A stretch of 64,000 nucleotides of DNA from a virus, in IMG/VR virus record IMGVR_UViG_3300043749_000038, positions 5,072-69,071 of that record, one strand, 5' to 3'. The position numbers were made by a program, and so were the translations under genes. Below, in pieces: positions 22,630-62,501 of the stretch; positions within the stretch are counted from its first letter, which is position 1, and each line of letters opens with the position of its first letter. Under the pieces are notes generated by a model. The model did not search any database, was not told the origin of the DNA, and worked only from the letters and a program-made list of their open reading frames with translations.

Positions 22630-22902
22630 GTGGGCATGAGCACCCCAATGCGCGCAAAGCTGGTTGTCAGCAACGTCGTGTCGAACGGCGAAAGCGATCG
22701 TGTGAGCTTCCGTGCCGTCTGCAAGTCGGACGGCTACGGCGCAGATGGCCTGGACGAGAACAACACGTTCTCCAAGTTCAGCCCGTCCGCAGATCTGCAC
22801 ATGTCGATCTGTAATCCGGAACTGGTCGGAAAGTACAAGGTCGGCGACACGTTCTACGTGGACTTCACGCCCGTGCTGGTTGTGCAACGCAACCCCCAGT
22901 AA
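22630..22902 (+). CDS. Hypothetical protein
   Basis: MRAKLVV...ENNTFSKFSPS...FYVDFTP; last + strand gene of late arm. Confidence 0.6.
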   Translation: MGMSTPMRAKLVVSNVVSNGESDRVSFRAVCKSDGYGADGLDENNTFSKFSPSADLHMSICNPELVGKYKVGDTFYVDFTPVLVVQRNPQ

Positions 22903-22912
22903 ACGCACGGCA

Positions 22913-22945
22913 AGGGGTGCGCCCGCTGCGCAATAGCGCACCCCT
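22913..22945. terminator. Hairpin at convergence of the two arms
   Basis: AGGGGTGCGC...GCGCACCCCT inverted repeat between convergent genes. Confidence 0.55.
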
Positions 22946-22960
22946 AACACACCTCCCCAG

Positions 22961-26903: not shown

Positions 26904-27130
26904 GGGAGTTTATTCCACGGTTTAATAGACGCATCGCTGTACTTTGCATCGCGGAGCGGGCTGTAGCTAAGGTCGATAATGTGCACATCCCCCGCTATGG
27001 TGTGTACATAGCGTTCCTCTCTGTGCGTGACAGGAATAAGCAACGGCATCCCACCGGGAATATTGGAGGGGCGAATCTCCTTAACTTGGCGCTTCTGCTT
27101 CTCGCCCTTAATGATCACTTCCATTAACAT
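26900..27130 (-). CDS. Hypothetical protein
   Basis: Coupled between dpdA-like and clamp genes. Confidence 0.45.
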   Translation of the reverse strand: MLMEVIIKGEKQKRQVKEIRPSNIPGGMPLLIPVTHREERYVHTIAGDVHIIDLSYSPLRDAKYSDASIKPWNKLP

Positions 27131-28059
27131 TAGAAAAGCTCCTGTACTTTTAACACGTCAAAGTCGTTCTGTTTCTTTTCAAGACGTTTGTTAATCTGCT
27201 GGTTCACTTCCATGTAGCCCAAGATGTTATACACAGCGCGGCTCTCGTAAATTGTACCAAGCCGCTGTACATCAAAGCCCTTACTATTTAGCATCCGTTC
27301 CACTGCTGCGCGCTCGATGTCGGTTAGTGTGGTTATATGCCTGCCCGCGTCGTGCTTGGCTGGAGAGTTTTCAGACACGGCAAGCGGCCCGTGCTCGCTC
27401 GTGTAAATGGAACCAAACGCTGCTGCTTGAATCCATGACGACGAGTCAACGCTGTACCATGGATACCGTTCCATTAACCACACAGCAGTCATACCGAACG
27501 CATGGACCTTGAGCTTGGGCCTGCCGGAACCATCAAGCATAAGCGGCCAGATGCGGTCAAGCCATACGCGCTGACTTTCCGCGGTACGCCGAACGAGGCC
27601 TCCAATGGTGATGTAATCGTAATTTGCAACGTACCATTCGAGGTAACGGACATCTTCGCCGTAGTGGAAGCAGGGGAGGGGTTTTGCATTTTGTGACTCC
27701 ATGTACAGTTGGTTCCTGTAAGTTTGAAGTGGATCTCCAATGCCGTCAAGTACAGATGCCATAACGATTCCATCTTCCTTACGCAGGATATCCTCGTTGC
27801 GCTTGATGTAATCGCAGTAAGCGTTAATGTCAATACTTACACCGAGGGAGTGCGCGGAGAACGCACCTGAGTCCAGGAACACTTGCGCACCCTGCTCCCG
27901 CATGGTATCGACAAAGCGCTGTCCGTGGACGTAGTGATATGATTCGAGTATATGAGGAATAGTAGGCGTGATTGCAGCCTCCACCTCGTTTAACTTTTCA
28001 TAACGTTGTTGACCTTTCATGTATGAGTTGGTATAAACAGCCGCTAAGAATAGATTCAC
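27130..28059 (-). CDS. dpdA: TGT-fold DNA guanine transglycosylase (DpdA-like)
   Basis: FLDSGAFS, VLDGIGD, FHYGE, IGGL, VHAFG, SVDSSSW TGT-family motifs; beside preQ0 genes and replication genes. Confidence 0.8.
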   Translation of the reverse strand: MNLFLAAVYTNSYMKGQQRYEKLNEVEAAITPTIPHILESYHYVHGQRFVDTMREQGAQVFLDSGAFSAHSLGVSIDINAYCDYIKRNEDILRKEDGIVMASVLDGIGDPLQTYRNQLYMESQNAKPLPCFHYGEDVRYLEWYVANYDYITIGGLVRRTAESQRVWLDRIWPLMLDGSGRPKLKVHAFGMTAVWLMERYPWYSVDSSSWIQAAAFGSIYTSEHGPLAVSENSPAKHDAGRHITTLTDIERAAVERMLNSKGFDVQRLGTIYESRAVYNILGYMEVNQQINKRLEKKQNDFDVLKVQELF

Positions 28060-28278
28060 AGGTTGTACTCCTCGCGTGCTGTGTTCGAAAGTCTTGTTAG
28101 GACCTCCTTTTCTTCTTTGGTGAACTCAATCTGGAATCCACCGCTAACGTCGATGTAGTCAATACTTTCCGAGTCAATAATGCGAGCAATGTATTTTTTG
28201 AACAGAGCTTCGTAGTCCACAGTAACAACCCTTGCGGTAAATGCGTACGCCGCTTGCGGTAGCGCACGGCAAAGCGTT

Positions 28279-28311
28279 AAAAATGGGGAGGTGCACACTG
28301 TACCCTCCCCA
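28279..28311 (-). terminator. Rho-independent terminator between que genes and dpdA
   Basis: Minus strand TGGGGAGG-loop-CCTCCCCA-TTTTT. Confidence 0.65.
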
Positions 28312-29290: not shown

Positions 29291-29767
29291 TTATTTTCCA
29301 AAAAAGGTTGCAGAGTTGGCACCATGCTCGGAGCATTTAACCGAGGCGACGCGTACGCGATGGAAACGGCCGCCGGACGCATGCTTTCCGTTCAGCTCCC
29401 GCACGAGCAGAGCGACTTCGTTGTAGACTTCTTCTGCGAACGATTCGCAGCCTACGCGGGGTACAACCCTGAGGTCGATGATCTTCTGGTCGTGCAACAC
29501 GCGGAAGGCGTCCAGTGCTGGATCGTCCTTGGCAATGACGGTCTTGTGGTCGAACATCTCGCCAAGCCTGGAGCGCAGCGATTTAAGACCGCCGAAATCG
29601 ATAAGCCAGTTGCGGCCGTCCAGCGTGTTGGATTCGAAGACGATCTCGAATGCCAAGCTGTAACCGTGCAGCATCGAGCAGTGCGAGTGCGTCGCTTTGT
29701 GCTGCCGGAAACAGCAGGACAATCCGAGGTTGTGGTCATAGACCTTTGTTACTTGGTAGCTGGACAC
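29291..29767 (-). CDS. queD: 6-carboxy-tetrahydropterin synthase
   Basis: HCSMLHGY, IDFGGLK, FDH, terminal E-H-G-A-N-S-A. Confidence 0.9.
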   Translation of the reverse strand: MSSYQVTKVYDHNLGLSCCFRQHKATHSHCSMLHGYSLAFEIVFESNTLDGRNWLIDFGGLKSLRSRLGEMFDHKTVIAKDDPALDAFRVLHDQKIIDLRVVPRVGCESFAEEVYNEVALLVRELNGKHASGGRFHRVRVASVKCSEHGANSATFFGK

Positions 29768-29934
29768 AGGTGCACCATCTTTCGCAGTTGTTCGACTTGG
29801 TCTTTCAGATCCGTATTTTCCTGAAGCAGCTTAGCTTCACGCGCAAGAACTTCGTCGAGTTTCTTACACTTTTCACCGTACTGCTGTTCCAGATTGCGGA
29901 GGGCTTTGTGGGCCGGGATGGGTTTAGCAGCCAT
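29749..29934 (-). CDS. Small coiled-coil protein
   Basis: Coupled between queC and queD. Confidence 0.5.
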   Translation of the reverse strand: MAAKPIPAHKALRNLEQQYGEKCKKLDEVLAREAKLLQENTDLKDQVEQLRKMVHLCPATK

Positions 29935-30797
29935 TATTCGTCACCGCTTGGTTGCTGGTAGGCTGGATTTTCAGCCATGGCGCGATCGTGCTCGGCCGCC
30001 GTGTCCAGCGAGCGTTGATCGCCGCAGCACAGATCCATACAGACGTTGGCGTAGTTCGGGGTTTCCGGCAGCTTCATCAGCCCTTCACGTGCTGCACGCA
30101 CGACCAGCGGGTCCGGCACGCCGGCCTCTTCGAAGCCCTTGGCGCGCAGCAGGGTAGCATGGTCCTTGCCGACCGGCGGATAGGCGCCGTCGTACGATGT
30201 GTGGGAATATGCCAGAGCTTCCATGCATCCCGGGATCGCCTGCGCCAGACGCACACTGTCCGCTTTGGTAAGGTACATGAGCGGGGTAAGGATGCGCAGT
30301 GGTCGCAGCGTACCCGGCTCGCCGGTGAACGTACCGTAGTTGATCGCGTCTTGCAGAGCACTGATGAACGTTGCACGGCAGTCCGGATAGCCGCCGCTGT
30401 CTTCCTGGCACACACCGGTGATCAGCACGTTGCAGCCCAGGACGTAAGCGCGGTTTGCAGCCAGCGTCAGGAACAGTTGGTTGCGCATCGGAACGAAGGT
30501 CTTTTCCAGACCGCCAGGCAGGGACTGATGGTCCGCGTACTGCTCGAGGACTTCGTCCGGATTGGTCAGCGGCGACGTGCCGGCCAGGATAGGACCGACG
30601 GTTGTCAGGAACTGCTTGCTCGGGTGCACGCCGACCATGCGAGCGATGATACCTGCGGACTCGATCTCGGTCGCATGTTTCTGACCGTAATCGAAGGTGA
30701 TAGTGTGGACGTCGTAACCCTGCTGCTTGGCCCAGAACAGGCAAGTGGTGGAGTCTTGTCCGCCGGACAAGACCACTAGAGCTTTTTGCTTGAGCAT
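29934..30797 (-). CDS. queC: 7-cyano-7-deazaguanine (preQ0) synthase; possible longer start at 30911
   Basis: VLSGGQDSTT, FDYGQKH, TFVPMRN, GYPDCR, TPLM motifs. Confidence 0.92.
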   Translation of the reverse strand: MLKQKALVVLSGGQDSTTCLFWAKQQGYDVHTITFDYGQKHATEIESAGIIARMVGVHPSKQFLTTVGPILAGTSPLTNPDEVLEQYADHQSLPGGLEKTFVPMRNQLFLTLAANRAYVLGCNVLITGVCQEDSGGYPDCRATFISALQDAINYGTFTGEPGTLRPLRILTPLMYLTKADSVRLAQAIPGCMEALAYSHTSYDGAYPPVGKDHATLLRAKGFEEAGVPDPLVVRAAREGLMKLPETPNYANVCMDLCCGDQRSLDTAAEHDRAMAENPAYQQPSGDE

Positions 30798-30912
30798 ATC
30801 TTTAACCTTCCTTTTCTCGTAAAATTGGAAATCGCAGCAATCGCATTTCTTTGTAGCAGAATAAGCGAACGCGTAGCATTTAGGGCACACCTTTAGCGGT
30901 GCGTCACCCATG

Positions 30913-31128
30913 TTATTCCCCATTTTTGAAATAGTCGACTTGAACTTCTTTACCCATGCGAACAATGCAGCCCAGCATGAGAAGGATCCAGAACGCAGCA
31001 ACGGCGCCCCACACCCAGCCGGAGGGCTGAAACTTGTCCAGCAGCAGGTAGAAGACGATGCCCCAGCCGATCGGCAGACGGGTAGGCAGGTTACTTGGCG
31101 CGAGGACGCGCGGATTCTTTTTGGACAT
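30913..31128 (-). CDS. Small membrane protein
   Basis: Two hydrophobic segments, within que cluster. Confidence 0.55.
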   Translation of the reverse strand: MSKKNPRVLAPSNLPTRLPIGWGIVFYLLLDKFQPSGWVWGAVAAFWILLMLGCIVRMGKEVQVDYFKNGE

Positions 31129-31131
31129 TTG

Positions 31132-31317
31132 TTAGACCTTTGCTTTCTGGATTGCGGTGAAGATTGCTTCGCGAAGTTGAGATTCGATCAGCGGTTCATC
31201 CTTACGAACAGGATTCTGCACCATCGATTGCAAAGCAGCTAATTCAGCAGCGTCGCAAGCAATGGTAAAGTGATAAACCGTTTTCATGGATACGTTAACG
31301 TGTGCAATTGCCATCAC
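31132..31317 (-). CDS. Hypothetical protein
   Basis: Overlaps queE stop. Confidence 0.45.
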   Translation of the reverse strand: MMAIAHVNVSMKTVYHFTIACDAAELAALQSMVQNPVRKDEPLIESQLREAIFTAIQKAKV

Positions 31318-32033
31318 TCCACCCCGAGGTATTTGTGGGTCTGAAGCTGGAGGGTGTAACCGAAGCGCAAGCAGCTATCGACAACCGCTTTAATGTTCTT
31401 AGCGTTAGTTGCTTCGTCCTTGGAGTCCATCGGCTGGAGATAGACGGGCTTGCCACCATGTCGAGCAACCTGCGGCGCCGCAGTGTGGTTAAGCGCAAGG
31501 ATAGGAAGGCCGTCGTTCGGATTCACGCTGTCGTGAGACAGGACGTACTTGAAGCACTTTGCGCGCGAACGAATCCATTCTTGCACCTTGCCGGCCTTGG
31601 GGCTGCAAACGATGTGGATTTGTTCCCACACTGGATGGTCTTGCGTGCCGGGCCCGGGAGCAAGCGTGCCGTTCGTTTCGATTTGCACGGTGTATTCGTG
31701 CTTTACCAGCAGTGCGCACAGTAAAAGCAAGCTTTGACGGAAGGGTTCACCGCCGGTAATGACGATGAGCGGTTTACGATGGGACCGTGTGGACTGCGTC
31801 TTGATTGAGTCCAAGATGGATTCCACATTCATCACAAGACGACCCTTCGTGTACTCCGTGTCGCAGGACGGGCATTGCAAGTTGCAACCCGCAAGGCGCA
31901 CGAATACAGCAGGGCGTCCGGTGAACGGACCCTCACCCTGAATTGTATAGAAGATGGAATGGACGTCGAGGACGGAACCGTCCGACTTGACCGACTTTTC
32001 AATCGGTTGGGTGTTGATTGGGATAACTTGCAT
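31314..32033 (-). CDS. queE: 7-carboxy-7-deazaguanine synthase (radical SAM)
   Basis: FYTIQGEG, RLAGCNLQCPSCDT, TGGEP, IETNG, SPK, LQTHK. Confidence 0.95.
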   Translation of the reverse strand: MQVIPINTQPIEKSVKSDGSVLDVHSIFYTIQGEGPFTGRPAVFVRLAGCNLQCPSCDTEYTKGRLVMNVESILDSIKTQSTRSHRKPLIVITGGEPFRQSLLLLCALLVKHEYTVQIETNGTLAPGPGTQDHPVWEQIHIVCSPKAGKVQEWIRSRAKCFKYVLSHDSVNPNDGLPILALNHTAAPQVARHGGKPVYLQPMDSKDEATNAKNIKAVVDSCLRFGYTLQLQTHKYLGVE

Positions 32034-33826: not shown

Positions 33827-33858
33827 CTCCGGTTAAGTTTTGCGCTACCACAATGTTT

Positions 33859-33887
33859 ATTGTACGCACTAAGCGTGCAGTTTGCAA
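33859..33887 (-). promoter_or_regulatory. Sigma70-like promoter
   Basis: TTGCAA-17 bp-TACAAT on minus strand. Confidence 0.65.
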
Positions 33888-33891
33888 ACAT

Positions 33892-35628
33892 TTAAAACGG
33901 AATATCGTCGTCTTGTGGCGAAATCGGTGCTTCGAATTCGTCCATGAAGCACTCGTCCATCACTTGTGGGAAAGGATGCGCATTTGCCCACACACGCACA
34001 TGCGTTGGGACCGGGAAGTCCGGGATCATTTTAACCGCTTCCTCTGCGCTATTTGGCATTGGAAGATTGGTGCGCTTCTTCCACCACTTCTCAGCCTTGT
34101 CGCGAAGGTGCGGGCTGTGATTGATTAACAAGAAGTGCATCACCTTCTGACTAAAGCTGTGGTAGTATGTGACGCGTACACTATCGGGTTTGCCCGCCTT
34201 CTTGTTGACTGAACAAAGAACCTGCTCAACTCGGTAAACTTTAACCTCCGGCGCTTCGTTCCTGATAACTTCCTGCGTGCTAGCTTGTTTCTGAATCTTC
34301 ACTTGGAAGATGAATTCAGCCCCGCATCCCATCGGGGTCTTGTATGGCTCACCGCCGCAGAACCGCGCCGAGATGTGGTTATACGCATCGCAGTGATCGC
34401 AAATTTTAATCGGCGCTTCGCCTTTGGACGCACCTTTCTTTTTCGGGATAATTGGGTCGTTAATCGGGCCGCAACGCTTGATGTTCCCAGCGAAGTCCAT
34501 CACCAAGCAGTTCTGCTTTGGACTTGCCGCAATTGAAGCTAATCGGCCTTGAATAGTGGTAAGGTCGTAACCTTGTTTGACAAACAGAGGACGTGTACCG
34601 CGCCCGAGCATTTGAACCCAAAGCTTGGAGGACATCGTAGGGCGCAACATGACAATAAGATCAAGACCCGGATGGTTCACACCTGTAGTCAAGATACCCA
34701 TATTGATAATTGCGGTGTACTCGTAGTTCTTCCAGGCGCGGATGTTATCATCACGCTCCCCGTCGGACATCTTGCTATGCACAACCCGGCACGAAACGCC
34801 CAGATGTGTAAGCATCTCTCGAATTTTTTCGCAATGCTCTAGACCAGAAGCAAAGACAATCCAGCTCCGACGATCGTGCGCGTAGTCAAGTGTTTCCAGA
34901 AGCGCAGCGTAAGTGATCTTATCTTTGTTGACAGCGAGTTGAAGCTCTTTCTCGTTGAAGTCTCCGCCAACTAGCTTAACCCCGTCGACGTCGAGGATGG
35001 TCTTTGTGGGCTTGGAAACAGGTGGGACCAAATAACCTTCTTTGATGAAACGGTTGAACGACACCATGTCGGTGAGGTCGATCGCCATGTGCGTAAAGAT
35101 ACCATCACCTTGGGTTAAATGACCCTGCCCCTCCCGCCAAGGAGTGGCGGTAAACCCCAGCACACGCAGGTAAGGATTGCGCTCCTTTAGCGCCGTAATA
35201 AGGCGCATGTACATCGAGGTTTCGCGATTGCTAATGAGGTGACACTCATCAACGATAAGGATGTCAACTTTGCCAAACTTTGCTACGTTCTTAATGATTG
35301 AAGCGATACCAGCAAAGATAATCTGCTGACTGGTATCCTTACGCTTGAGACCTGCGCTATAGACGCCGGCGGGGGCGGTTGGCCAGATATTCAATAACTC
35401 CAGATAGTTTTGCTCAACTAGTTCTTTGACGTGTGTTGCGTTAATAAAACGCTGGTTCGGCGCAGCGCGCAAGGCATTGTACATGAAGTAAGCGATCGAA
35501 AACGCCTTGCCCGTACCGGTCGGCATACCCACGATAGGATGCGTATTCGGGTCGGGGTTGGTGGCGAACCAGCGCCAAATGGCGCCGTCGACCGCTAGCT
35601 GATAGTCACGCGGGATCAGTGTGGTCAT
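33892..35628 (-). CDS. Superfamily 2 DNA helicase (RadD/UvsW-like)
   Basis: PRDYQ, PTGTGK, DECH, TATP, QMLGRGTR, C-terminal Zn ribbon. Confidence 0.9.
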   Translation of the reverse strand: MTTLIPRDYQLAVDGAIWRWFATNPDPNTHPIVGMPTGTGKAFSIAYFMYNALRAAPNQRFINATHVKELVEQNYLELLNIWPTAPAGVYSAGLKRKDTSQQIIFAGIASIIKNVAKFGKVDILIVDECHLISNRETSMYMRLITALKERNPYLRVLGFTATPWREGQGHLTQGDGIFTHMAIDLTDMVSFNRFIKEGYLVPPVSKPTKTILDVDGVKLVGGDFNEKELQLAVNKDKITYAALLETLDYAHDRRSWIVFASGLEHCEKIREMLTHLGVSCRVVHSKMSDGERDDNIRAWKNYEYTAIINMGILTTGVNHPGLDLIVMLRPTMSSKLWVQMLGRGTRPLFVKQGYDLTTIQGRLASIAASPKQNCLVMDFAGNIKRCGPINDPIIPKKKGASKGEAPIKICDHCDAYNHISARFCGGEPYKTPMGCGAEFIFQVKIQKQASTQEVIRNEAPEVKVYRVEQVLCSVNKKAGKPDSVRVTYYHSFSQKVMHFLLINHSPHLRDKAEKWWKKRTNLPMPNSAEEAVKMIPDFPVPTHVRVWANAHPFPQVMDECFMDEFEAPISPQDDDIPF

Positions 35629-37882: not shown

Positions 37883-38040
37883 TGCGACCCCCAGGCGGCA
37901 AGCGCTGTGCGCACAGCTTGTGCGATCCGCGTCATCTGCATTCCGTGGAACTGGAGCTGCAAGAAGTTTTTGCGACGTTCCATGTTGCGCGTGAAGGTCG
38001 AGTAGGCCAGGGCTTTTGCGTGTTGTGCTTGTTTGTTCAT
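37879..38040 (-). CDS. Hypothetical protein
   Basis: ATGA overlaps at both ends (MNKQAQ...). Confidence 0.45.
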   Translation of the reverse strand: MNKQAQHAKALAYSTFTRNMERRKNFLQLQFHGMQMTRIAQAVRTALAAWGSQ

Positions 38041-38882: not shown

Positions 38883-38940
38883 TTATACTCCGAAGAGAGG
38901 ATTAAAAAACCGCTACCGACTAGCGGCAGCGGGTAGGTAT

Positions 38941-38969
38941 ATTATGCACCAGCCATTGTTTAATTGCAA
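38941..38969 (-). promoter_or_regulatory. Sigma70-like promoter
   Basis: TTGCAA-17 bp-CATAAT on minus strand. Confidence 0.6.
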
Positions 38970-38987
38970 GGGCGTTGCGCTGATAGT

Positions 38988-43000: not shown

Positions 43001-43073
43001 TTTTCTTCCTTGGGTTAAGTTGCACATGCAACACTTAATTGTAGCGCAGCAAGGCTGCATTAGTACAGCGAAA

Positions 43074-45723: not shown

Positions 45724-45752
45724 GGTGTGGTTATTAGTTGGTGCGGACAGCT

Positions 45753-45781
45753 ATGGTAACGTGCGTTACAACTTATTGCAA
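45753..45781 (-). promoter_or_regulatory. Sigma70-like promoter
   Basis: TTGCAA-17 bp-TACCAT on minus strand. Confidence 0.6.
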
Positions 45782-45804
45782 GCCCTAACGCACGTTATTT
45801 TGTA

Positions 45805-47747: not shown

Positions 47748-48268
47748 TTCAACCTCCTGAACAGCCTTTGCAGGCGCGATTTGTGATACAGTAAAATTTT
47801 CTCAGGTGCGCTCAGATTACCAGCTTGCGCGTTGCAATCTTTATGTGCGAGAAACTTGTTGCTGATGTGCTGCGGTCCTCCGTGGCAGACAGGTACAAGA
47901 TGCTCAATTGTTCCTTGACCTTCAGGAACATGCTCCGCACAGAAGAAACAGTCGCTACCATCGCGTTGACGGATCGTACGATATTCCACGCTTTGCGAAG
48001 GCTTACGTTTAGTTGGTGGGATAGCCCTCCATTTGGTCTCAGGATTGAGGAACTCCAGCCAGGCTTGTTGTGCATCGCCAATGAAGGAACAGGTTGCGTT
48101 CTCGTCCTTACTACGATAGACGATAGCTACACCCTTGCCCGTTTTAAAGCGGATCAATTCCCATTCATTTGTGACAGACAGCAGCTCAGCACCGCGCTGG
48201 CCCAAGAACGTCTTAAAGTTCTCGAGCCGTTTAATTACTTGGTTAGCTGTCGGCAGATCTTTACGCAT
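47744..48268 (-). CDS. HNH endonuclease
   Basis: RDG..CFFC, TIEHLVP..GG, N...AH..CN. Confidence 0.8.
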   Translation of the reverse strand: MRKDLPTANQVIKRLENFKTFLGQRGAELLSVTNEWELIRFKTGKGVAIVYRSKDENATCSFIGDAQQAWLEFLNPETKWRAIPPTKRKPSQSVEYRTIRQRDGSDCFFCAEHVPEGQGTIEHLVPVCHGGPQHISNKFLAHKDCNAQAGNLSAPEKILLYHKSRLQRLFRRLN

Positions 48269-48418
48269 AATCCAAGTAAGTCAGCGGTGGATATTGACGA
48301 TCGCACCAATCTCGAACCATGCGCTCGATGCCAGTTTCGCCCATTTCGTTGGCGTCCCGTTCGGTCAGTGTGGTTACAAAGATAGGCTTCTCCTTCTCTT
48401 CTACTACAGCATAGATTT

Positions 48419-51400
48419 TCATATTCCTGTAATCTCAAATAAGTAAATTTTCAATCCCGGATTCATCTCTTGCACCTTCTCGACAACCAGTTTAAACTCA
48501 ACAGGGTTGCGAGTTTTAAACGGCTTGATCTTGGGCAGGTTAGTCCTCATCACCCACATGACCTTCGGTGGTTCAGGTTGACCGGCCTTTTCCTTCTCAA
48601 GCTGTCGCATTACTGCGGCCATCAGTGCAGGATGATCTGAAGCACGGATACCCATATACAACCTCCTACAAGCTGCGCAGGGTTATTACCCAAGCATACC
48701 CCTACGCGCACATTTTTAACAGCGGCAAAGCGTGTTGCCGCACGCGGCAGGGTGCAGTTTTACCCCTTGGTAAGCAGGTTCGGGTAAAACTTCGCCAGTT
48801 GCTCGTTAAGGGAGTTAAAAACCTGCTTGTTGAGTTCGGACTCTTTCACCGAAGCAGCGATAAGAACTCTGTCGGTTGTCGACTGCATTGCCATGCGTGC
48901 AAGCGTGGTTTGATCGGTCAAAGCGCGAACAATTAGACCGAACTGCTCAGCGGTGATGTGCACGTTCAAACCATAGCGTTGGAAACGCTCTGCTTCATCA
49001 AGACGGCTTGTACCTTTGTGCTGTTTGACCACACTGAGCGCAGCTTGGAGCGAACCAACCGAGCGATGCAGTTCACTGATGTCATACACCAGAGCATATT
49101 GCAGGTCAGGCGAGAACTTACCGAAGTATTCCGCCTCCATTTGACGGGCAAGCGCAGGATTCTCGAACTTTGTGCACCATGCTTTGAACAGCGGAGGATG
49201 TTCAGTGAAGAACTTCCGCGCTTGATCAGGCAACTTAGCCATAATCTGCTCAGATGTCAGACTACGAATAAGTTCTGCAAAATTATCTTCCATTGTTTAC
49301 TCCTCATATCGAGCAAAAGTGCCCGTCAATGCGCCACCGAAGTGACGCATTAGCTGGAACTTTAATCGTCTAGCTGGAACTTTACAGAGGTTCGCCGACG
49401 TATGCGGACGGGTCGACGTTGTAACCCAAGCCGATCAAAGCTTTAGCTACATCGCGCGGTAAGCAGGAGCGACCATCGTAATCCCTCAAGCTCTTGTCCG
49501 TCTCAAACCAGAGTCCGCCACCTTCACCGTAGACGTCGTGCTCGTAGTAACCGTAATTGGTCGTCGGCGAAACTTTCACTTCCCATTTGCCTTCCTTGGC
49601 GGTCAGGGTGTAGTCGTGCTTTTTGAGATCCATATTATTCTCCATGTGTGGTTAAGGGTAACACAGTTCAAGCAGCTTGCTTGCGTTTTTGAAGGTCTTG
49701 GTGGACCGTTGTTTCCAAGACATCGTTAAGCGCCTGCACGCACTTCAGGTGGAAGTCAGCTTCACGCTTGTGGTCAGCAATCTTGCGCTGATTGTAGAAC
49801 ACGGCTGAATCACCGTTTTCCATCTTGTGTTCATACCGACGCTGGGAATTGCGGTGACTTTCCACGCGCTTCCAGTGCCAGATACGAAGTTGGGTAAGAT
49901 TCATATTCATTCCTTTTCCAGACGAGACATTGAGTTTCCAAATTGCGTGTTGATGAAAATCGGCAACTTTGTGCAGCTTACGGATTTCCGACTTTCTACA
50001 AGGGGCATCGTGGCTGTTCGCAGCACTGAAAGCTAAGTTACGGAATAGAGCAAACTTATCTTTATGCCATTTGTGGAGTTCTTCGAGGGTCATCAAGCCA
50101 CCTTTGCAATCTGAACAAAAAGACTTGCTTGGTAATTCTGCATTTTAATGACCAGATTCCCTGCAACCAATTCGTAAAGTTCCTGACGCTGGCTGATGTC
50201 AGTCTTAGCGATTGTTTCTGCTATTTGTTCAGCCATCTTGTTAAGTTCGCCTTTGGTGTGGTAGCTCATGCATGAACCCCCGTTGCTTTGATCAAGAGCG
50301 TAGCAGCTTCGGTTTTGGCGTCGATGAAGTAAAAGTTGTAACGATTGTAGGCGTCAGTGGCTTTGTCGAACGACTCGCTAATGTGCTTGCTATTGATTTG
50401 ACCCCACACGCAGTAGTTCTCGAGCATGCCCACAAAATCGAGGTTGAGCTCAACGCGCCCGTCGTTGGTGTGCACGAGGAAGCGCTTGATTTCGCGATCG
50501 GGTTTGATGACGTATTCTTCAACAACCCAGCTACCGTCGTTGTTCATCGCTTCAAGTTCAGCCTTGTGCTCTTCGGCAGTACCGAAAGGATTTAAGCTTC
50601 TTTCCATTTCGGACAGATACTCTTTCCTGAATTTAGGACTGAAATCTCCAACCAGCTTCACACAGTGATTGCTGTATTGCAGCATATCGTTCTTAATAAT
50701 GCTCATCTTGGTTCTCCTTGACTTTAAGCCAAAAGTTTTCAACTTCAAGGGCAAACGCTTTGTCTTTCAACGCCACGTTCTCCTTAACGGTTCGCGCTAG
50801 TTCCTTTGCTAATTCCTCTTTGGTGCGCGACTCCATGAGGTAGGTGAAGAGGTTCAATCAACACCCCATCCCGTTTGTACAACTTCACGACGCACCTCAA
50901 CAGGGATGTAGGTGAGTTTGTCCGGTAGGTTCGCAGGGCGCCGTCCGGTAATTATCCGATGATTTGGATACTCAAGCACGGTAGCCAGTTCAATGTTGCT
51001 GGTTTCACCAACATGGACCGACTCCGTCCCCCACTTTAAAACCACACTAATGATTAGGAACGTGCCATCTTCCTTGACGGCGACGTATCCTTTTGTGACT
51101 TTCATATTTCCTCCTTTAACGGACCAATCGTCCGACAAGCCACCCTGTTGCCAAGGTAGCTTAGCTGACGTTATCGGTTACGTTGTTGATCTTGGTACTG
51201 ACGCTTCGGCATATCCCACTCGTCCAAGAAAGGCTCAATGGCGTCACCGCGCTTCTCGCGCAAATCCAGGGCAATGCGGACGTGTGGGTAATACTTGGCA
51301 ATCGCCTTGATCAGGATGCCGTCGCTGACGTAGCAACCGAAGTTGCCACCGTTCTTCCACCAAGCTTTAGCTTTCACATTTATGTGAATAAATCTGCCGC

Positions 51401-54400
51401 TGTCGGGAATGATCTCGTACTTCACCTTACCTTGCTTAACCAGATGGTACGGGTCAGACATGTCGACAACAGTCAGCTCGCTGTAACCTGCTGGTGAACC
51501 TCCAAACCACGGACCACGCAAGTGCACCGTGCGCCCGTCCTTCAGTTTGATGGTAAAGGTGGCGCCCGCGTAGCCGTTTTGCTTGGTGGTTTGCCAGTGG
51601 CCTTCAGGAAGCGGTTTGCCGTTGTCGTCCTTATTGCTAAGAGCTCCGCTGTGCCAGTGCTGCTGCATTACGCCTTCGTGCTCGCGGAACCAGCGACCAT
51701 TTTCACCCTGCTCCCAAAGCACATCCTTGGGCATTGGCTGTGTTGCGCATTTGAACTTGACGCGAGGGCTATTGGCCCAACCCATCATCCAGTCGATGTG
51801 CAAACCCTTCACCCAAGCGGGCAGATCCTGCGGGCCAACCGGGCGTTCAATTTCAACCCAGTTCGGGGCGCCTTCAAGACCATGACGAATTGCCAAGGTC
51901 TGATCTTTACTGGCTATCATGCTATCTCCTTGTTAGTGTTACCGGGTAAGTCACCCGTAACAGTGCTCTGTCACAGCACTGTGGCTGGTTACTTAATCCT
52001 GCTCGTGCTTGCCGCTACCGGCAAACTTCTGTTTGCTGAATTCACCAACGATCGGAACACCGTTGGGCGCAAGCACCGGACATTTCTCGCTCATGCTGTG
52101 AACGCCGTTGCGCTTGCCGCAATGCGCGCAGAGTTCGGTGAGCTCGAACTGCCTTCGGCTGTCGTTGAAGTGTGGTGCCATGTTGTGGTTATCCTTTCAA
52201 ATGTTAGGGTATTCGCGCACGGTGCGCAGGAACACGTTACGATCTGCGTCCCATTCCTCGACGCATACTTTGCCGTACGTCGCAGACAATTCGTTAGCAC
52301 GCTCAAGAGCGCGCTGCTTGTTCAGTTCGTTGTGCTCTGGTTCGCCGACGTACCAACCTTTTTCGACACGGCTCCAGTTAAGGGCGCTGCCGGTTAAGGA
52401 TGCCCACACTTCGTAGCGCAGGCGGGTTGCGTTTGCCATTAGTAGCTCCTTTCAGCGTTGGAATTAACTTCACGTTTCGGGTTAAACCGGCCCAGGATGT
52501 AATCTGGCCGGCGTTGGTCCGGTTGTGGGCACGCTGCAAGGATGCGCCAACCAGAGTCCAACTGGCTTTGCAGGTTGTCGGAGCAAGAGTTCTCGCACAA
52601 CATGACTTCGTTGTAGGTTGCGAGCGCTTGCCCGGGCATGTGCACTTCGCAGCGCTCGTTGTAAGCACGCTCTTGCGGTGCAAGGTTCAGCAGCTTGTTA
52701 GCTACTTGCTCGAAGCGGTTATAGTCGAATGCTTCTGGGCCGTTGAATTCACGAATGCCCTTAAGCTCGAACTTAAAGCCATTTTCAACAGCATAGAGCA
52801 TCTGTTCTCTAGATAGTAAGATGCCGTGCGGTTGGCTTTCTTGGTGCTCGCTGAGCTCATTTCCGATAGATTTCAACCATGCGCTGCGTGCTTCCAATAC
52901 AGCCTTGGTTTGGGCGTTGTCTTCATCTGTGCTGTAGCTGGATTCGTACAGCCATTGGAAGTCCACATTGTACAGTTTCATTTGCAGTTCTCCTCTTGAA
53001 ATTTGTGTCTACGGTTACAGTGCTGCAACTGTTATTGTACCACAATTCCAGCACTATGGAAGGGTCTATTGTGCGCAATCAGCGATCAATTTGTCAATCC
53101 AAGCTTCGCGCGCACGATTGTAGATATTGTTCTCGTCAGCCCAGGCAAAGTGCTGGTGTCTTGTGTAATTATCAATATATTCAACGTTGAGCTGGATGCG
53201 AAGCCAGTGATTGAAAGTATAGAGGTAATTGAGCCCTGCTTGAATCTCTTGCAGGAGGCTTTCAGCTTCGACGGAAAGCTCGGGCATGCTGTCTCTTATG
53301 TGCTCAATAGAGTTGCACATAAAGACGTCCGAGGACGTGCGGTCTTGAAACTCTGCTTTCAGCATGTTCAGGATTTTGAGACGATTCTTGTTCATTTAGA
53401 CTCCTTGTACAGTGAGGTAATACCAGTGGTCCTCCACTCCCTTGCGTCCTCCGCCGTTGAGGATGTGCTCCAACTGCTCGTCGTTGCGCGGGATTCGTTC
53501 TCTTAACTGCTCGATGGTGGGTTTGTTTGCCCACACAGCAACGAAGTACTCGCCGTGCTGATCGTACTCGTTGTATTCCTCGGTGAGAATCCAAACGGAG
53601 GGAACTTGTGTGGGCACATGCTCGGGCATTGCAATGACTTCGCGGAACGCGCCCATTACGTAGCCTTGCAGCTTTTTAGATAGCAGACGTGCAATATGCT
53701 GATGAAATGCAGCTTCCAGCTTTTGGGCCGGTGTCTCTTGTCGGTTCATTTAGACTCCTTTATGCCAATAAGGCGGTTATCGGATAAGCATCCGTAAATG
53801 CACCCTGTCACAGTGCATTGGCTGAGGCTTACAAATACGCGTCTGCTAGGTAGCGGCAGAGGTAGAAGAACGAAGGGACGCACATTACTTGTTGACCATT
53901 AATGAACCCACCCCAAACACGATTGCCATGCAAGGAACGGCCCACTACTTTGATATGTGGTTTGTTCATGGTCTTAACCCCAATAGCTGAAGATGCACCA
54001 CTTCGGTTCCTGCCAGGGGATGTTGTGGCGGGTGCAGAAGTCGCGCAGGGCTTTGACTTCGCTATCGTGTACGTGCCCGAACACAGCAGCGGTCGGATAA
54101 CCACGCAGAGCCACTTGCTTCGTCCCACGCACGGCCAGGAAGTACATTGGGTTATCGCGGGAGCAGTGACGGATAAGGTCAACTGGGACTTTGTTGATGT
54201 CCTCGACGGGCGTTGTATCAGTGCTGTAAAGATCCAACAGCACTGCTTCTTCGTCGTTGTCGTACTCGTCGAACATGCGCGCTAAACCTTCAGGCAGGTT
54301 GTTATCCAGATCGCCCAGGTCGAAACCGAAGGCTAGGATTGCGTTTGTGCTCACTCCCATTTTACCTCCTCGTTATGGTTTGGATTGCGTTTGTAGATTG

Positions 54401-56995: not shown

Positions 56996-57622
56996 TCACT
57001 GTGCTGCCGGAGCAGGCTGTGTAGGCATGCTGGCCACCGGGATGAGCTGGGAGCGACCTTTGATGCCGTTGTACGAGCGCCACCGAGCGAACTGAGTTTT
57101 GATCGTGTGCTCGTTGACGTCCTTGAGATCCGGGTGCGCACGCACTTGGCTGATGAGCGCCGGGTGGCCGTTCTGGTCGTGGCTGATCTTGTCAGCGATT
57201 GCCCAGATTTGGCCGCACAGCGAATCTGGTGCCGGGCGGGTGATGCCGTTCTGCTGCTGCTTGTCCGCCTTGGGAGCACGAGCTTGCTTGGGCTGGCCAA
57301 GGACGACCGAAGGGTTGATGCCGAGTGTTGCTGCGAGTTGTTCAACTTGCTTCTTGAACTCGAGCTCTTTCTTCTGCTCTTCGGTCAGCTCCGGTTCCTT
57401 GTGCACTGCCGGCGTGGTTTGGGTCGTCGGTGCGAACTGCTGGCGACGATCGTGGTCCGCCTGGCGGCGTTCAGCCTTGCGCTGCTCTTCGTCGACTGCG
57501 TGTTCCTCTTTCGGAGTCTCGAGGTTCTTGCCTTTCGGGCCTTCGACGGTGCCTTGAGCGACTTTGTGCACACGCGGAGCACGTTTTGCAGCAGCTTTCG
57601 GGGCGGTTTGAGTAGTTGCCAT
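56996..57622 (-). CDS. Putative DNA-binding protein (paralog 3)
   Basis: NGITRP...QIWAIAD...NEHTIKTQFARW. Confidence 0.7.
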   Translation of the reverse strand: MATTQTAPKAAAKRAPRVHKVAQGTVEGPKGKNLETPKEEHAVDEEQRKAERRQADHDRRQQFAPTTQTTPAVHKEPELTEEQKKELEFKKQVEQLAATLGINPSVVLGQPKQARAPKADKQQQNGITRPAPDSLCGQIWAIADKISHDQNGHPALISQVRAHPDLKDVNEHTIKTQFARWRSYNGIKGRSQLIPVASMPTQPAPAAQ

Positions 57623-57699: not shown

Positions 57700-57833
57700 G
57701 TTAATGCACACTGCGAGCACCCCTACAACGCACGGCAAGCTTTGTTGCCACGGTTTTCGCAGCTTGGGTAGGGTGGGAGTAGCTTCCCACCCCTTACACC
57801 GCTTGTAGCTTGCGGCGCCCAAACTGCATTAAC
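57700..57833 (-). ncRNA. Putative multi-branched structured RNA / leader
   Basis: 9-bp closing stem GTTAATGCA/TGCATTAAC just downstream of TAAAAT; internal hairpins with repeated AAGCUAC loops. Confidence 0.5.
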
Positions 57834-59071
57834 TACATTTTAGCCCAAAATTGCGAATTTAAACGTGCTGGGCGTCGCTTTTTGGGGTCTTATCAGCGTC
57901 AAAGAACGATTCAGCGAACACAAGAGCGGGATAACCTCGGATTCCAAGGAATAACTCGAGATTTATCATAATGCTCTGCACTCCCATGCCCTTCTTGACC
58001 TCGTCTTTGATAACCTCGACAGTGTGGTTATACTGCTTGCCAAGGTAGAAGCGAACGTCGTCCATCGCCTTCTTGCGCTTGAGGTCTTCATTCGTGAATT
58101 TTGAGTAGTCTACGGTCCAGTGCATGATTAACGTCCTTTCTCGCGAGCGAATTGAGCGAAACCAGTTGCAATGTCGGCATCAGGCGTCTGGAAGATGTCC
58201 AAGTCGGTCTTGGCAAGGTATTCGTCAATGAGATCGTCGAGCATTCCGATGTACCAATCGTGCAGCAAGATGCTGAGCCAGTCTTTACGAGCCGTGACAA
58301 ACGCTGCGTTCTTGATCTCACACGGCGTGTCTTTGTATTCTTGCAGTTTCATTTGTTCTCCTTAGTTGAGTTCGAGCAAAGCGCTCGACAAGTGAGCCAG
58401 TTAAGGCCCACTTAGCTAGAGCTTTACTTCATGCAGTCCATGACAGCTTCCATCACTTGACCCTTGCGCAGAGCCGAGTCAACAGCGTCGTACATGTAGT
58501 CCTGCACGAAGCCGCTAACGCCTTGATCGCGAAGGAACGCGAGGAAGTCCGGGTTGAAGAAGTTCCCTTCGAATCGTGGCAGGAGTCGATGCTTCATGAC
58601 TACTTGCATCCCACCTTCAACGGGGGCGAACTCCACTTTGTCGTTCGACTTGAAGTCGACTGCGGTAATTTGCAGGTCATTCATGACGTCAGCACGCATC
58701 GTTTCTTCGTAGGTGTTGACGCGGGTGGTTTTAGTTGCCATGTTGATTCTCCTTGGTTGGTACTGCGGTTATGAGCAAAAGCGCTCGTGAATGCCCACGG
58801 TATGTGTGGGCATAAGCTAGAGCTTTACTTAATGTTGAAGCGACGCTTGAGTTCTGCCTTCACTTCACGAGCAACAGGACCTCGCCAGGTTTGTGCATTG
58901 ACGAGGAAGTAGGTGCAGATTTCCTCTGCGTTGGCGAAGCCGTAACGGTCACCATCCTTCACGAAGGAAAACATCGCTTCGATGTAAGGGACCGCGCCGA
59001 AGTAAGGCTTCTTCCAGTCGTCTTTAATGATCTTGGCGATTTCAGCTACGCGCATGTCTTGCAGGTTCAGA

Positions 59072-59245: not shown

Positions 59246-60928
59246 GATTAAGCCCCCATCGTGAAACCACCAGCCCAACCATCGGGTTGGCGTTCGACGC
59301 TGCGATCTTCGTTGCAGATCCAACCCTCGACAAGTTCCACTTCAACCAAAGCGATGGACGCCAGTTCGTAGTGGTCGCCTGCCACGGCATCTACTTTCAT
59401 CATAGCAAGCAGCTTTTCTTGGCTGTCACGTGACACTCCCAGGCTACGGATACTTTCGAGCATCTCGTTTGCACGGTTGATAACACCAACGACGTTGGCT
59501 TGTTTGAATTGGTTCGAATTCATGATTTACTCCTTTAAGGTTAGATGCAAAGTGCATCCAGTAGCCCAGCACGCTGAGCTATAAGATTACTTTACGGTCG
59601 CAAGCTCAATGGCCTGTACAGCGTGCGGAGGTAGCGGATGCTATCCCACCACAACCGAGCAGACTCGAGATCATAGAAGATTGCTTCGAAACTATGATCA
59701 GTTCCAAACTGCTCAGCTGTTTGGTACTCCACCTTGTATTCTTTCATGTTTAGAACTCCACATCTTCTGGTTTAACAATGATCCACATTGCCATTACTTG
59801 CAACAGGATCGACGGAACACTGCACAATGTCCGATTCCACACAGTGGAATCCATCGGCAGGTAGTAATTGAGTACGAACATGTAGACGATGGCTGAGATA
59901 GTCATAGCTACGCTCATCACGCTGTTGATGATCAGCTTCTCTTTTTGGAGTTGGTGCTCGGTTTTGGCTTTGTACATGATTTTTATCCTTGTTGTTGAGT
60001 TAGTGCAAGAGCGCACTCACTACCTCAGCACGCTGAGGTAGTAAATTGCTCTTACTTACTCGCAGCCATCAGAGCGTCTTCCATTACCCACTCAAACAAG
60101 TCACCTTCAAGCGTGTCGTGAACTGCATTACGCAAGCTGACTGGTTTGCTGTAGTCTTGTTTGTTGAGGAAGACTCCTTCTTTGATTCCTTGCTCAGCAC
60201 GTTTGATTGCGCAGCGTACGATCAACCAGACTGCAAAGTGGGTGAGTAGATGGTTCATGATTAATCTCCTCTCGTTGGTTGAATTAGTTGCACACTTCCA
60301 TTGCTTCAGGTTCGGTCCAAGTGAGGTCGCCCTCGGTCTTGGTGACTTCCACGATTTGCTGCTTGCACTCGTGAGTAGCCTGCTCATGCTGCTTGTGCGC
60401 AGCGTACATGACAGGCAAAGCAGCGACTGCTAAGATAACAGCGTGCACGACCATGTAGAAGTGTATCTTTTTCATGTTGTTGCTCCCTTGTTGTGTGGTT
60501 ATCAACTAATGCAGCCTGTTCCCAAGCTCCATTAGTATGCCGCCTGTCACGCGGTCACACCCCAACCATGGCGGACTCAATTACTCGTGATGTTGTACTA
60601 GCCTTGAGTAGTTGCTTTAGGTTGGTGAGTACTCATGTGCATGTTTAATGGCTTTTCGGGTAAGGTACTGTTAATTACGAACTTGCTATGTCTGCAAGCC
60701 ACTTTAACATGAACCCCTATTATTGTTGACTACTGGAGTACCGCTTTACAGTGTTACCCTTTTGCATGAGTGTGTTGCTGTACTGTTGTATTGTTAAAGA
60801 ACCGACCAGTGCACAGCGTTATGTGTGCGGCCTACTGCAAACTAGCTAAGTGGTGCGCTTGATGCTGCTTAGTTGGGCATACTGTCACTACACCCAAGTA
60901 AGCAACCCTTGCGGGTTGCGCTACCGCA

Positions 60929-61363
60929 TTACTGCTGTTGCGCTGCTGCCTTTGCTGCTGCGGTGCGGTACACACCAACTTGCGTACTAGCAGTTGCTTT
61001 GTTAATACCGTTGTCGGTGCACAACTGCACCATTTGTGCGCGCGTGTAGTGCGGGTACTTAGCGCACAGTGCGTGTACAGCAGCGCAGGGGCGCAGCGCT
61101 ACCCCGTCGACTACAACACTAGTGTTGCTTGGGGTAACTGTTGCGCTATTAGCACGCGCGGTGCCGGTATGCAACAAGTGTTGTACGTTTGCAATACCGT
61201 GCTGCGCAGCAAGCTGTTGCACACCAGCAATAAACGCTGCTTGCGCTGCTGCATGTTTACGTGCAGCATTTTTGCTTGCGCGCAATTGTTGCACCACAGC
61301 AATGCGTTGTTGCATACGGGTAACAGCGTTGCGTTGCACTTGGGTAAGTTGTTGTTTTTGCAT
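60929..61363 (-). CDS. First gene of leftward arm; Glu-free protein with putative DNA-binding domain (paralog 4)
   Basis: RPCAAVHALC...RAQMVQLC...GINKATASTQ; own promoter and AAGGT RBS. Confidence 0.7.
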   Translation of the reverse strand: MQKQQLTQVQRNAVTRMQQRIAVVQQLRASKNAARKHAAAQAAFIAGVQQLAAQHGIANVQHLLHTGTARANSATVTPSNTSVVVDGVALRPCAAVHALCAKYPHYTRAQMVQLCTDNGINKATASTQVGVYRTAAAKAAAQQQ

Positions 61364-61456
61364 GGTTGCACCTTAACAATAAAAGTTAATAAAAAGTAAT
61401 GTGTGGTATTTTTACCACGTTTACCAGGTAGCACCGTTGCTGCTTGGTATGTGTTT

Positions 61457-61485
61457 ATTATACGCTTAATTGCGCAAAAATGCAC
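61457..61485 (-). promoter_or_regulatory. Sigma70-like early promoter
   Basis: GTGCAT-17 bp-TATAAT on minus strand. Confidence 0.6.
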
Positions 61486-61553
61486 TGTATGCCTGTACAG
61501 CCCGAGTAACATATATTTTTATTGAAACTGCTGGCTCGATAGGTAAAACCTAT

Positions 61554-61644
61554 TGCTTAAAAATTAGGCAACTTGCCCGAAATTTAGGCACTGCCTAATT
61601 TATAGGCGCTGCCTAGTTTGTAGGCATTGCTTAAAAAGTAGGCA
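61554..61644. repeat. Five tandem 17-bp imperfect palindromes TGCCTA-N5-TAGGCA
   Basis: Units start at 61554, 61574, 61592, 61610, 61628. Confidence 0.85.
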
Positions 61645-61916
61645 ATGTTGCTTACCGTAAATAAGTTGCCAATTTGATAAGATTTTCGGGTATGGGCCAT
61701 CTACCAGCAATAAAAACTCCGTCCTGCCTAGATAGGACATCAAGTTACACTTAATACATCAATAATCCCAACTCCCTATCCAACACCCACCCCCTTCCTA
61801 AAATACTGCCAACATCCCAATTCTGGATCCCCAAAAAAACAAAGGTTGGATACTATATTTTCTACACTAGTTTCAGTAAACACGGTACACTGCGGTTTTC
61901 TCTTAAAGGTGTCTAA

Positions 61917-62501
61917 ATGAACGACTTTAAAATTGACGGCAAATGGGCCCGCTCTGTCGGCGGAACTCTTACTTATTCGTATCAAATCTGGTATAGCATG
62001 ATGCAGCGCTGTATTCCGGGAGGTCGAATCCAAAAACTTTACAAAACGTATGACGGTTGTCACACTTCGGAATTGTTCTCTGACTTTGATCGTTTCGCAG
62101 ATTGGCTTTCTGTGCAGCCGGGCTACCAGCTTCCTGATTACGATCTCGACAAGGATTTGCTTTTTGACAATAACAAGCTTTATTCTGAAGACACTTGCGT
62201 TTTAATCCCACACGCACTGAACACATTTTTTATCGCTACCAGAGACAGAGAATTGCCACAAGGGGTTAGCGCTCCTTTAAGCCGTTTTGGAACAAAGAAG
62301 CCGTTCAAAGCGCAGTTGAGGGTTGACGGGGAGATTAAATACCTCGGCATGTTCCCAACTGCAGAGGCTGCGTTTTCGGCTTATAAAGTGGCAAAAGAAG
62401 CACATGCTAGGCAATGGGCCGAACGTTTAGCTGCTGGTGAGTTCATTGTAGATCCTCGGGTCATTGATAGGATGCGCGTCTGGACTGTGCCATCCAAGTG
62501 A
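61917..62501 (+). CDS. HNH-type homing endonuclease with AP2-like DNA-binding domain
   Basis: W.SM.QRC, LDKDLL...K.YS..TC...P..LN, YLGMFPTAEAAFSAY; lower GC. Confidence 0.75.
   Translation: MNDFKIDGKWARSVGGTLTYSYQIWYSMMQRCIPGGRIQKLYKTYDGCHTSELFSDFDRFADWLSVQPGYQLPDYDLDKDLLFDNNKLYSEDTCVLIPHALNTFFIATRDRELPQGVSAPLSRFGTKKPFKAQLRVDGEIKYLGMFPTAEAAFSAYKVAKEAHARQWAERLAAGEFIVDPRVIDRMRVWTVPSK

Follow-up and report, generated by a model that had tools for sequence, protein, structure and literature searches.

The closest described counterparts of the locus reported here are the dPreQ0-modified, Queuovirinae-like phages CAjan and iggy. As stated in the text of the respective papers, the DpdA of CAjan acts on GA and GGC (PMC7544227, restated in PMC10484667), and iggy modifies GA only (PMC10484667). 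We analyzed a 64,000-nucleotide stretch of a virus genome (positions 5,072 to 69,071 of IMG/VR record IMGVR_UViG_3300043749_000038; hereafter, the window) that encodes a DpdA of its own. This 7-deazaguanine DNA transglycosylase, located at 27130..28059 on the minus strand (phrog_887, E value of 1.8e-79), is 62.6% identical to the CAjan enzyme over 310 amino acids (aa) and 58% identical to that of iggy; a Pfam search gave no match at an E value of 1e-3. Within the window, the interval 60889-61503 is almost devoid of GA and its complement TC (GA/TC). It spans a gene for a 144-aa protein, here called p144 (open reading frame [ORF] at 60929..61363, minus strand). An earlier note on this DNA had proposed that this island, together with many promoters, escapes the phage's own modification. 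We found that the avoidance extends to GGC and its complement GCC (GGC/GCC) and recurs at the homologous gene of related phages.

Avoidance of GA/TC and GGC/GCC in p144 and its relatives

Only three GA/TC dinucleotides were found in the island, at 61014, 61107, and 61109, and none from there to 61503, exactly as the earlier note had counted. At the window's own frequencies, approximately 73 would be expected over these 615 bp (GA, 1 observed versus 35.1 expected; TC, 2 versus 37.8). The GA/TC-free run from 61109 to 61504 (395 bp) is the longest of the window, and the second and third longest, of 129 and 93 bp, flank it. For the whole genome of 69,071 bp, the geometric expectation of the maximum is ca. 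71 bp, and the longest runs free of five other asymmetric dinucleotide pairs measure 47 to 136 bp. In binned profiles, the depletion begins ca. 100 to 300 bp upstream of the start codon and ends ca. 100 to 150 bp past the stop, so that it covers roughly one transcription unit. All GAN and NGA contexts are depleted to about the same degree. Each of the three residual G's sits in CGAC, in line with the earlier reading of GAC, but the suggestion that GAC is exempt from modification fails in the relatives described below, where residual sites include GAA, GAT, and GAG (three of each in contig G002).

The composition of the gene follows the same avoidance. The ORF holds three GA/TC and three GGC/GCC sites, and its product, rich in Gln and Ala, has no Glu, two Asp, and 15 Lys plus Arg, as the earlier note had read for the acidic residues (Asp plus Glu, 1.4% versus 10.7% genome-wide). 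Its ribosome-binding site is TAAGGTG and indeed lacks AGGAG. In 5,000 synonymous recodings with the codon usage of the genome, GA/TC numbered 30.0 ± 4.0 with a minimum of 15, indicating that amino acid choice and synonymous choice have both been shaped by the avoidance. GGC/GCC, expected 17.0 ± 3.2 times on recoding, occurs 3 times, and GCC is used in none of the 31 Ala codons. When 11 homologs were pooled, GA and TC on the coding strand were both low (0.44 and 0.31 of the synonymous expectation), and the untranslated flanks are likewise motif free, so that selection seems to act on the double-stranded DNA and not on the mRNA. Strand bias was of no use as a discriminator, as template and nontemplate strands are both depleted.

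A total of 42 metagenomic homologs of p144 were retrieved, at 43 to 79% identity. Three or fewer Asp plus Glu are found in 23 of the 43 proteins of the family, and a tree of all 43 requires at least three switches between acid-poor and acid-normal states. A DNA search with 60600-61800 and a tblastn search with p144 found nothing in 50,697 phage records, nor did a scan of viral contigs with p144 as a single protein, while an alignment-based scan of the viral contigs gave 15 loci. In all seven related contigs (42 to 54% GC, with homologs 34 to 55% identical to p144), the p144 homolog was the most GA/TC-depleted called gene, with P values from 9e-5 to 3e-21, compared to 3e-5 to 8e-2 for the second-ranked genes. 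Gene calls for this ranking, and for the intergenic statistics below, came from a purpose-made codon-bias caller and not from a standard program.

The degree of depletion varies among loci. With expectations taken from the genome's own frequency (G loci) or from the rest of the locus (L loci), observed versus expected GA/TC in the ORF were 3 versus 52 in G000 (values as for p144), 12 versus 53 in G002, 3 versus 53 in G003, 27 versus 56 in G004, 27 versus 50 in G005, 19 versus 48 in G007, and 1 versus 37 in G008. The L loci gave 11 versus 54 (L005), 20 versus 55 (L010), 2 versus 13 (L046), 0 versus 39 (L048), and 1 versus 44.5 (L049). L048 and L049, whose products are identical in their C-terminal sequence, were counted as one lineage. 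L047, a distant homolog of the domain that resembles the paralogs described below and is not depleted (47 versus 52.8), was kept outside the family counts, and L011 to L015, L017, and L019, partial matches of 26 to 63 residues without depletion, were left out of the analysis. The most depleted lineages (G000, G002, G003, L046, and L049) have ribosome-binding sites that contain no GA (TAAGGTG, TAGGTG, TAGGTA, or TAAGGGG). Six other homologs have TAAGGAG or TAGGAG, among them G008 despite its nearly motif-free coding sequence. A DpdA, at 70 to 76% identity, is encoded in all four related contigs that are 57 to 100% complete, and no match to it was found in the remaining ones, all of which are fragments.

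What is new here is that GGC/GCC is depleted jointly with GA/TC. With three islands pooled, it was the most depleted trinucleotide after the words containing GA (10 versus 42.2 expected). Compared to synonymous expectation, GGC/GCC in the gene numbered 1 versus 19.5 in G002, 4 versus 16.4 in G003, and 0 versus 9.6 in G008, and GCC was absent from the Ala codons of G000, G002, G003, and G008 (0 of 31, 36, 44, and 28, respectively). The depletion was weaker or absent in the relaxed homologs of G004 (12 versus 17.3), G005 (7 versus 19.0), and G007 (18 versus 14.5).

Outside the clade, we compared three dpdA-positive phages (CAjan, iggy, and Sphingomonas phage MMDA13) and one dpdA-negative genome (lambda). 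In iggy, the equivalent divergent early region, at 59949-60626, contains a GA-poor stretch with 16 GA/TC versus 65.7 expected. GGC/GCC was not depleted there (43 versus 35.3) or across the eight GA/TC-free tracts of this phage (107 versus 99.3). Thus, GA and GGC are avoided in the window and GA alone in iggy, and the avoided set of motifs follows the two known DpdA specificities. Together with the dpdA gene of the window and the ranking in the seven contigs, this difference from iggy bears out the connection that the earlier note had drawn between island and DpdA. The scan of other dpdA phages that it had recommended gave a mixed picture: the GA-poor early region of iggy agrees with the proposal, CAjan has no island, and lambda, which lacks dpdA, has none either (longest GA/TC-free run of 62 bp versus 67 expected). 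The longest run of iggy measures 171 bp, and some of its runs fall in PQ-rich repeats. A small annotated gene of iggy (27653-27871, minus strand), the last of a leftward block, has a 161-bp GA/TC-free run and 6 GA/TC versus 21.2 in total; the iggy record contains one copy of the terminal repeat. MMDA13, for which the expected maximum is 63 bp, has a run of 117 bp at 61642-61759 (between gp84 and the endolysin gene) and one of 116 bp at 16598-16714, and its divergent early region contains no island.

Organization of the unit and the p144 protein family

The p144 gene heads a leftward block of small genes, beside a divergent intergenic region. The earlier note had called it the first-transcribed gene, a status that its position, and its position only, suggests. 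The 139-bp 5' leader and promoter-like region (61364..61503, minus strand) has no GA/TC. By eye, it shows a TATAAT at 61457-61462 preceded at 17-bp spacing by a weak -35 box (two of six matches). Beyond it, three tandem TAGGCAnTGCCTA palindromes with 18-bp spacing (61585..61633) lie inside a GA/TC-free tract (61579-61676), with AT-rich stretches beside them. With up to two mismatches allowed, the pattern is found in the window only at three positions, 61585, 61603, and 61621, and the array, which lies in the divergent region separating p144 from the rightward genes, resembles a set of operators. The half-site TTAGGCA was not enriched over the whole window (5 matches versus 5.85 expected).

Downstream from p144, a region without a called gene (60657..60928) has 0 to 3 GA/TC per 50 bp, compared to ca. 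6 expected. A hairpin read from the sequence (GCAACCC-GCAA-GGGTTGC; 60902..60919, minus strand) starts 10 bp after the stop codon. It is not followed by a U-run and could act as a weak terminator, although a terminator scan made no call there. Rfam searches of 60300-62000 returned only subthreshold rows (atoC, 26.5 bits versus a gathering score of 50). TGA cannot occur on either strand of a sequence free of GA/TC, so that naive longest-ORF calling takes the wrong strand at the island; long spurious ORFs cover it in several frames (for example, 60938-61399, plus strand). The first rightward gene beside the island encodes an HNH endonuclease (61917-62501, plus strand; phrog_953, E value of 7e-48).

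The AlphaFold model of p144, built with 20 sequences, has a mean predicted local distance difference test (pLDDT) score of 80.6. It consists of a long helix at residues 8 to 55 and a C-terminal domain of a hairpin and three helices with pLDDT above 90. Neither Pfam nor PHROGs (cutoff E value of 1e-5) gave a match to the protein. Over the C-terminal ca. 45 residues, it can be aligned with p224, p247, and p208, three clear paralogs encoded in the window, and also with two proteins each from CAjan (gp46 and gp68) and iggy. The comparison of the p144 family with that set by hhalign gave a probability of 88% (E value of 3.2e-6 over 44 columns), and a hidden Markov model of the family matched p247 with an E value of 8.8e-4. 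The paralogs and the CAjan and iggy proteins belong to phrog_11298 and phrog_18634, for which PHROGs assigns no function. Some records label their members "transcriptional activator FtrA domain-containing protein" (CAjan gp46 and the iggy protein beside queE). The structural neighbors of p208 in the Atlas include LexA, TetR, and FaeA domains, with template modeling scores of 0.46 to 0.49.

All three paralogs are encoded on the minus strand and have normal GA/TC. The early-region p208 (56996..57622) has 82 versus 76.7 expected, and p224 (32279-32953) and p247 (33083-33826), both beside queE, have 74 versus 82.6 and 75 versus 91.1, respectively. They have a C-terminal domain of ca. 55 aa in common and contain 24 to 28 acidic residues each (11 to 13% Asp plus Glu), some at positions (IAD and GIND) that are neutral or basic in p144. 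Since paralogs with the same domain keep normal GA/TC and normal acidic residues, the fold does not require an acid-free sequence. We take p144 to be, most probably, a diverged paralog, poor in acidic residues, of a domain that may bind DNA, and it looks like a dimeric DNA-binding regulator. In the earlier note, the gene product was suggested to license transcription of modified DNA, which as a role for p144 is conjectural. The domain occurs in 150 and DpdA in 165 of the 50,697 phage records, with nearly identical tallies by genus and host (Escherichia, 40 and 41; Pseudomonas, 31 and 31; Vibrio, 23 and 23). These are compared as tallies and not as accession overlap, and their match could be explained by the shared ancestry of one phage lineage.

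Shorter tracts and the surrounding genome

The shorter GA/TC-free tracts of the earlier note, 59 to 116 bp in length, are present where it had placed them: 22867-22954, 28218-28287, and 33830-33899 (gaps of 89, 72, and 72 bp) and 38921-38982, 43009-43069, 45749-45804, and 48666-48780 (gaps of 64, 63, 59, and 116 bp). Taken alone, they are unremarkable in this one genome, as gaps of at least 60 bp are in excess for GA/TC (13 versus 4.0 expected) and for CC/GG as well (15 versus 5.0). However, across the clade, the 17 further tracts that stay free of GA/TC over at least 80 bp hold 52 GGC/GCC versus 143.2 expected, the lowest of 24 trinucleotides under a local first-order Markov model, and this poverty argues that the tracts are selected rather than due to chance.

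The long tracts of the clade are mostly noncoding. One, upstream of p247 (33829..33900, minus strand), contains TTGCAA-17-TACAAT. Others lie between p208 and its next upstream gene (57786..57855, minus strand) and ca. 160 bp upstream of the dpdA start (28217..28288, minus strand), while the longest outside the island (48665..48780, minus strand; 116 bp) is mostly intergenic. A further tract (22866..22954) holds a 9-bp GC-rich hairpin and lies ca. 290 bp past the stop of the DNA polymerase gene, at a convergent junction and not at a promoter position, so that not all tracts are promoters. A tract just past the polymerase gene recurs in relatives at the junction with the opposed structural block (G002, 51507-51624; G005, 37792-37940). 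Tracts upstream of dpdA or of its preceding gene are found in three genomes (window, 28217-28288; G005, 30740-30877; G007, 48212-48311) and may serve the modification genes themselves as a promoter.

The claim that many promoters are kept free of GA/TC therefore stands in part. The other clade tracts are GGC/GCC poor, but some lie at convergent ends. For intergenic GA/TC as a whole, the observed/expected ratio was 0.80 to 0.88 for the clade, compared to 0.61 for iggy, 0.81 for CAjan, and 0.92 for lambda. Similarly, the preference for TTGCAA over TTGACA at the -35 position is visible in a few cases, three tracts that by eye hold TTGCAA-17-TAnnAT or CATAAT. A loose TTGNNN promoter scan, dominated by noise, gave 83 matches, of which 2 had TTGCAA and none had TTGACA; TTGACA was likewise absent from the matches in lambda.

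The 69,071-bp record is a single contig with a 127-bp terminal overlap in the assembly. It belongs to a tailed phage; the window encodes portal and tail proteins, a family B DNA polymerase (44% identical to the polymerases of CAjan, Seurat, and related coliphages), a sliding clamp, and a helicase, as well as a Cas4-like nuclease, a ligase, a thymidylate synthase, and a primase. Genes of the preQ0 pathway were recognized by Pfam matches at 29291..32033 on the minus strand: a QueD-like protein (29291-29767; PTPS, 1.4e-12), QueC (29934-31001; QueC, 6.5e-54), and a QueE-like radical SAM (S-adenosylmethionine) protein (31314-32033; Radical_SAM, 2.6e-7). FolE was not identified among the window ORFs scanned. 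The QueC has 355 aa, with ca. 70 extra N-terminal residues ahead of the Pfam match, and is close in length to the unusually long QueC of iggy (353 aa).

Possible reasons for the probable escape and comparison with known systems

The explanation that we favor, and regard on the whole as moderately probable, is that the promoter, the leader, the 144-aa gene, and a short 3' flank form a unit kept free of DpdA targets on both strands. These targets, in which DpdA would replace G by a 7-deazaguanine base, would be GA and probably GGC. The unit would then stay ordinary DNA in every copy of the genome, including the fully modified copy that presumably enters the cell. The benefit would be that the expression and control of what is probably the first leftward early gene are independent of the modification state, as host sigma-70 polymerase and operator-binding proteins would meet normal G's at the unit. 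Most plausibly, p144 would act at the three TAGGCAnTGCCTA palindromes upstream. The parts of this explanation differ in strength: avoidance of DpdA motifs is likely to be the cause of the depletion, while the securing of early expression or regulation is a more tentative suggestion, for which our confidence falls slightly short of even.

Published work offers a rationale for the promoter. On templates with 7-vinyl-, 7-ethynyl-, or 7-phenyl-7-deazaguanine, transcription by the Escherichia coli and Bacillus subtilis polymerases was almost abolished, and the text of the report assigns this in vitro inhibition to initiation, specifically to the G of the -35 box TTGACA, elongation not being blocked (PMC4838386). 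That G falls in a GA context, and an effect on initiation would explain motif-free promoters and operators. The transcription and regulation of hypermodified phage DNA were also raised as a question for 7-deazaguanines in the text of Hutinet et al., including a clash with sigma and transcription factors as a possibility (PMC6884629).

Several observations weigh against this explanation or limit it. The same lack of an elongation block leaves the motif-free coding sequence unexplained by an argument confined to the promoter. The promoter is itself a reading by eye, as the consensus promoter scan called no site for p144. CAjan modifies GA and GGC and yet has no island (longest GA/TC-free run of 81 bp versus 77 expected; 13 GA/TC versus 18.5 in its divergent early region), so that the island is not universal among dpdA phages. 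G004, G005, and G007 carry dpdA (70 to 74% identity), although their homologs are only ca. 2-fold depleted, and every relative long enough to judge is dpdA positive, so that the comparison covers dpdA-positive relatives only. GA and GGC as targets of this DpdA are extrapolated from sequence relatives at 58 to 63% identity. As for the protein, a Foldseek search of the Protein Data Bank with p144 gave no significant match (best E value of 1.2, with many weak helix-turn-helix rows), and the best VIA-align Z score, 6.3, is below the level of trust. Finally, the look-up of sequencing runs for the locus gave a single run, of soil metagenome contigs, which may be its source, and listed no RNA run.

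An alternative that we consider unlikely is that the ca. 1-kb zone poor in motifs acts in cis, for example, as a replication origin, a packaging site, or an extended operator field. It would have to stay unmodified for proteins to read it, and the gene would merely happen to lie in it. The palindromes unique to this zone and the AT-rich sequence beside them would suit such a site, as would the extension of the depletion into the noncoding flanks, ca. 270 bp past the gene, and the upstream 300 bp of G002, which are freer of motifs than its gene. However, in most relatives the depleted interval tracks the gene boundaries, in G008 and L048 the coding part is free and the upstream region is not, and the palindromes lie outside the coding sequence; nothing in this analysis supported an origin or packaging role.

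Slightly less probable again is that the motif-free unit survives a host defence acting on modified bases, such as a modification-dependent nuclease or glycosylase, so that a protective or regulatory gene can be expressed from incoming DNA that has been damaged. This would account for the freedom of both strands and of the whole coding sequence, unlike the argument from initiation, and it has a parallel in anti-restriction genes placed on the DNA that enters the cell first. On the other hand, no defence targeting 7-deazaguanine DNA was identified in this analysis, the rest of the genome would still be exposed, and p144 is basic, in contrast to the acidic inhibitors that mimic DNA.

Avoidance at the mRNA level, for example, of a ribonuclease cutting GA or UC, or avoidance of host restriction sites that include GA/TC is very improbable. 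The gene is presumably transcribed, and many restriction sites contain GA/TC. Nevertheless, one and the same strand is poor in both GA and TC, the depletion includes flanks of which a part is probably not transcribed, the GAN and NGA contexts are all down to about the same degree, the unrelated motif GGC/GCC is depleted too, and the avoidance concerns one gene rather than the whole genome. Chance, a protein of low complexity, or recent acquisition from a compositionally unusual genome, which the Gln- and Ala-rich p144 and the PQ-rich repeats under some iggy runs might have suggested, we judge refuted within the reach of the tools used, because none of the 5,000 recodings was as low as observed and the pattern is kept across divergent homologs in genomes of differing GC content.

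Returning to the escape of the unit from DpdA, which is well supported even if the selective reason is only partly explained, a bolder version can be formulated. The clade might have evolved a gene-sized blind spot for its own hypermodification, with p144 as a master regulator of the early phase and with DpdA unable to act on its gene, promoter, and operators, and the dpdA-associated domain family might adapt transcription to 7-deazaguanine DNA; we find this doubtful as it stands. If this version holds, hypermodification carries a real transcriptional or defence cost that phages solve by local removal of motifs, and the specificity of a DpdA can be read from the genome sequence alone. The island itself offers a concrete, conserved target for testing the cost of the modification to expression. 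The motifs avoided, GA plus GGC here and GA in iggy, match the two measured specificities and offer a readout of DpdA targets from sequence. The results also single out a so far unstudied protein family with nearly the same distribution among phages as dpdA.

A full-text literature search found no paper joining "GA-free" with deazaguanine and no description of such an island, and the searched text of PMC10484667 and PMC7544227 (supplements not covered) makes no mention of motif-free regions. The dPreQ0 system of CAjan and iggy is similar in its DpdA (58 to 63% identical) and in the QueC, QueD, and QueE encoded nearby in the window, the motifs avoided here are those mapped in these two phages, and iggy also has a GA-poor early control region. 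The difference is the whole motif-free gene, found in this clade only, CAjan having no island. The phrog_11298/18634 family is linked to p144 by the C-terminal alignment and by its three paralogs in the window, but p144 falls outside the PHROG cutoff and has lost the acidic residues of the family. Early-entering anti-restriction genes of the T7 gene 0.3 type are first expressed and work before the rest of the genome is at risk. p144 differs from them in being basic and apparently DNA binding rather than an acidic DNA mimic; with 15 Lys plus Arg and as few as 2 Asp plus Glu among its 144 residues, it does not have the strongly acidic composition of Ocr or ArdA. Finally, the escape resembles the avoidance of restriction sites in phage genomes, where selection also removes short sequences on which an enzyme acts. 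In this case, however, they would be targets of a modifying enzyme that the phage itself encodes, they are two and three nucleotides long and not palindromic, and the avoidance is local, confined to one unit and some intergenic tracts, rather than genome-wide.

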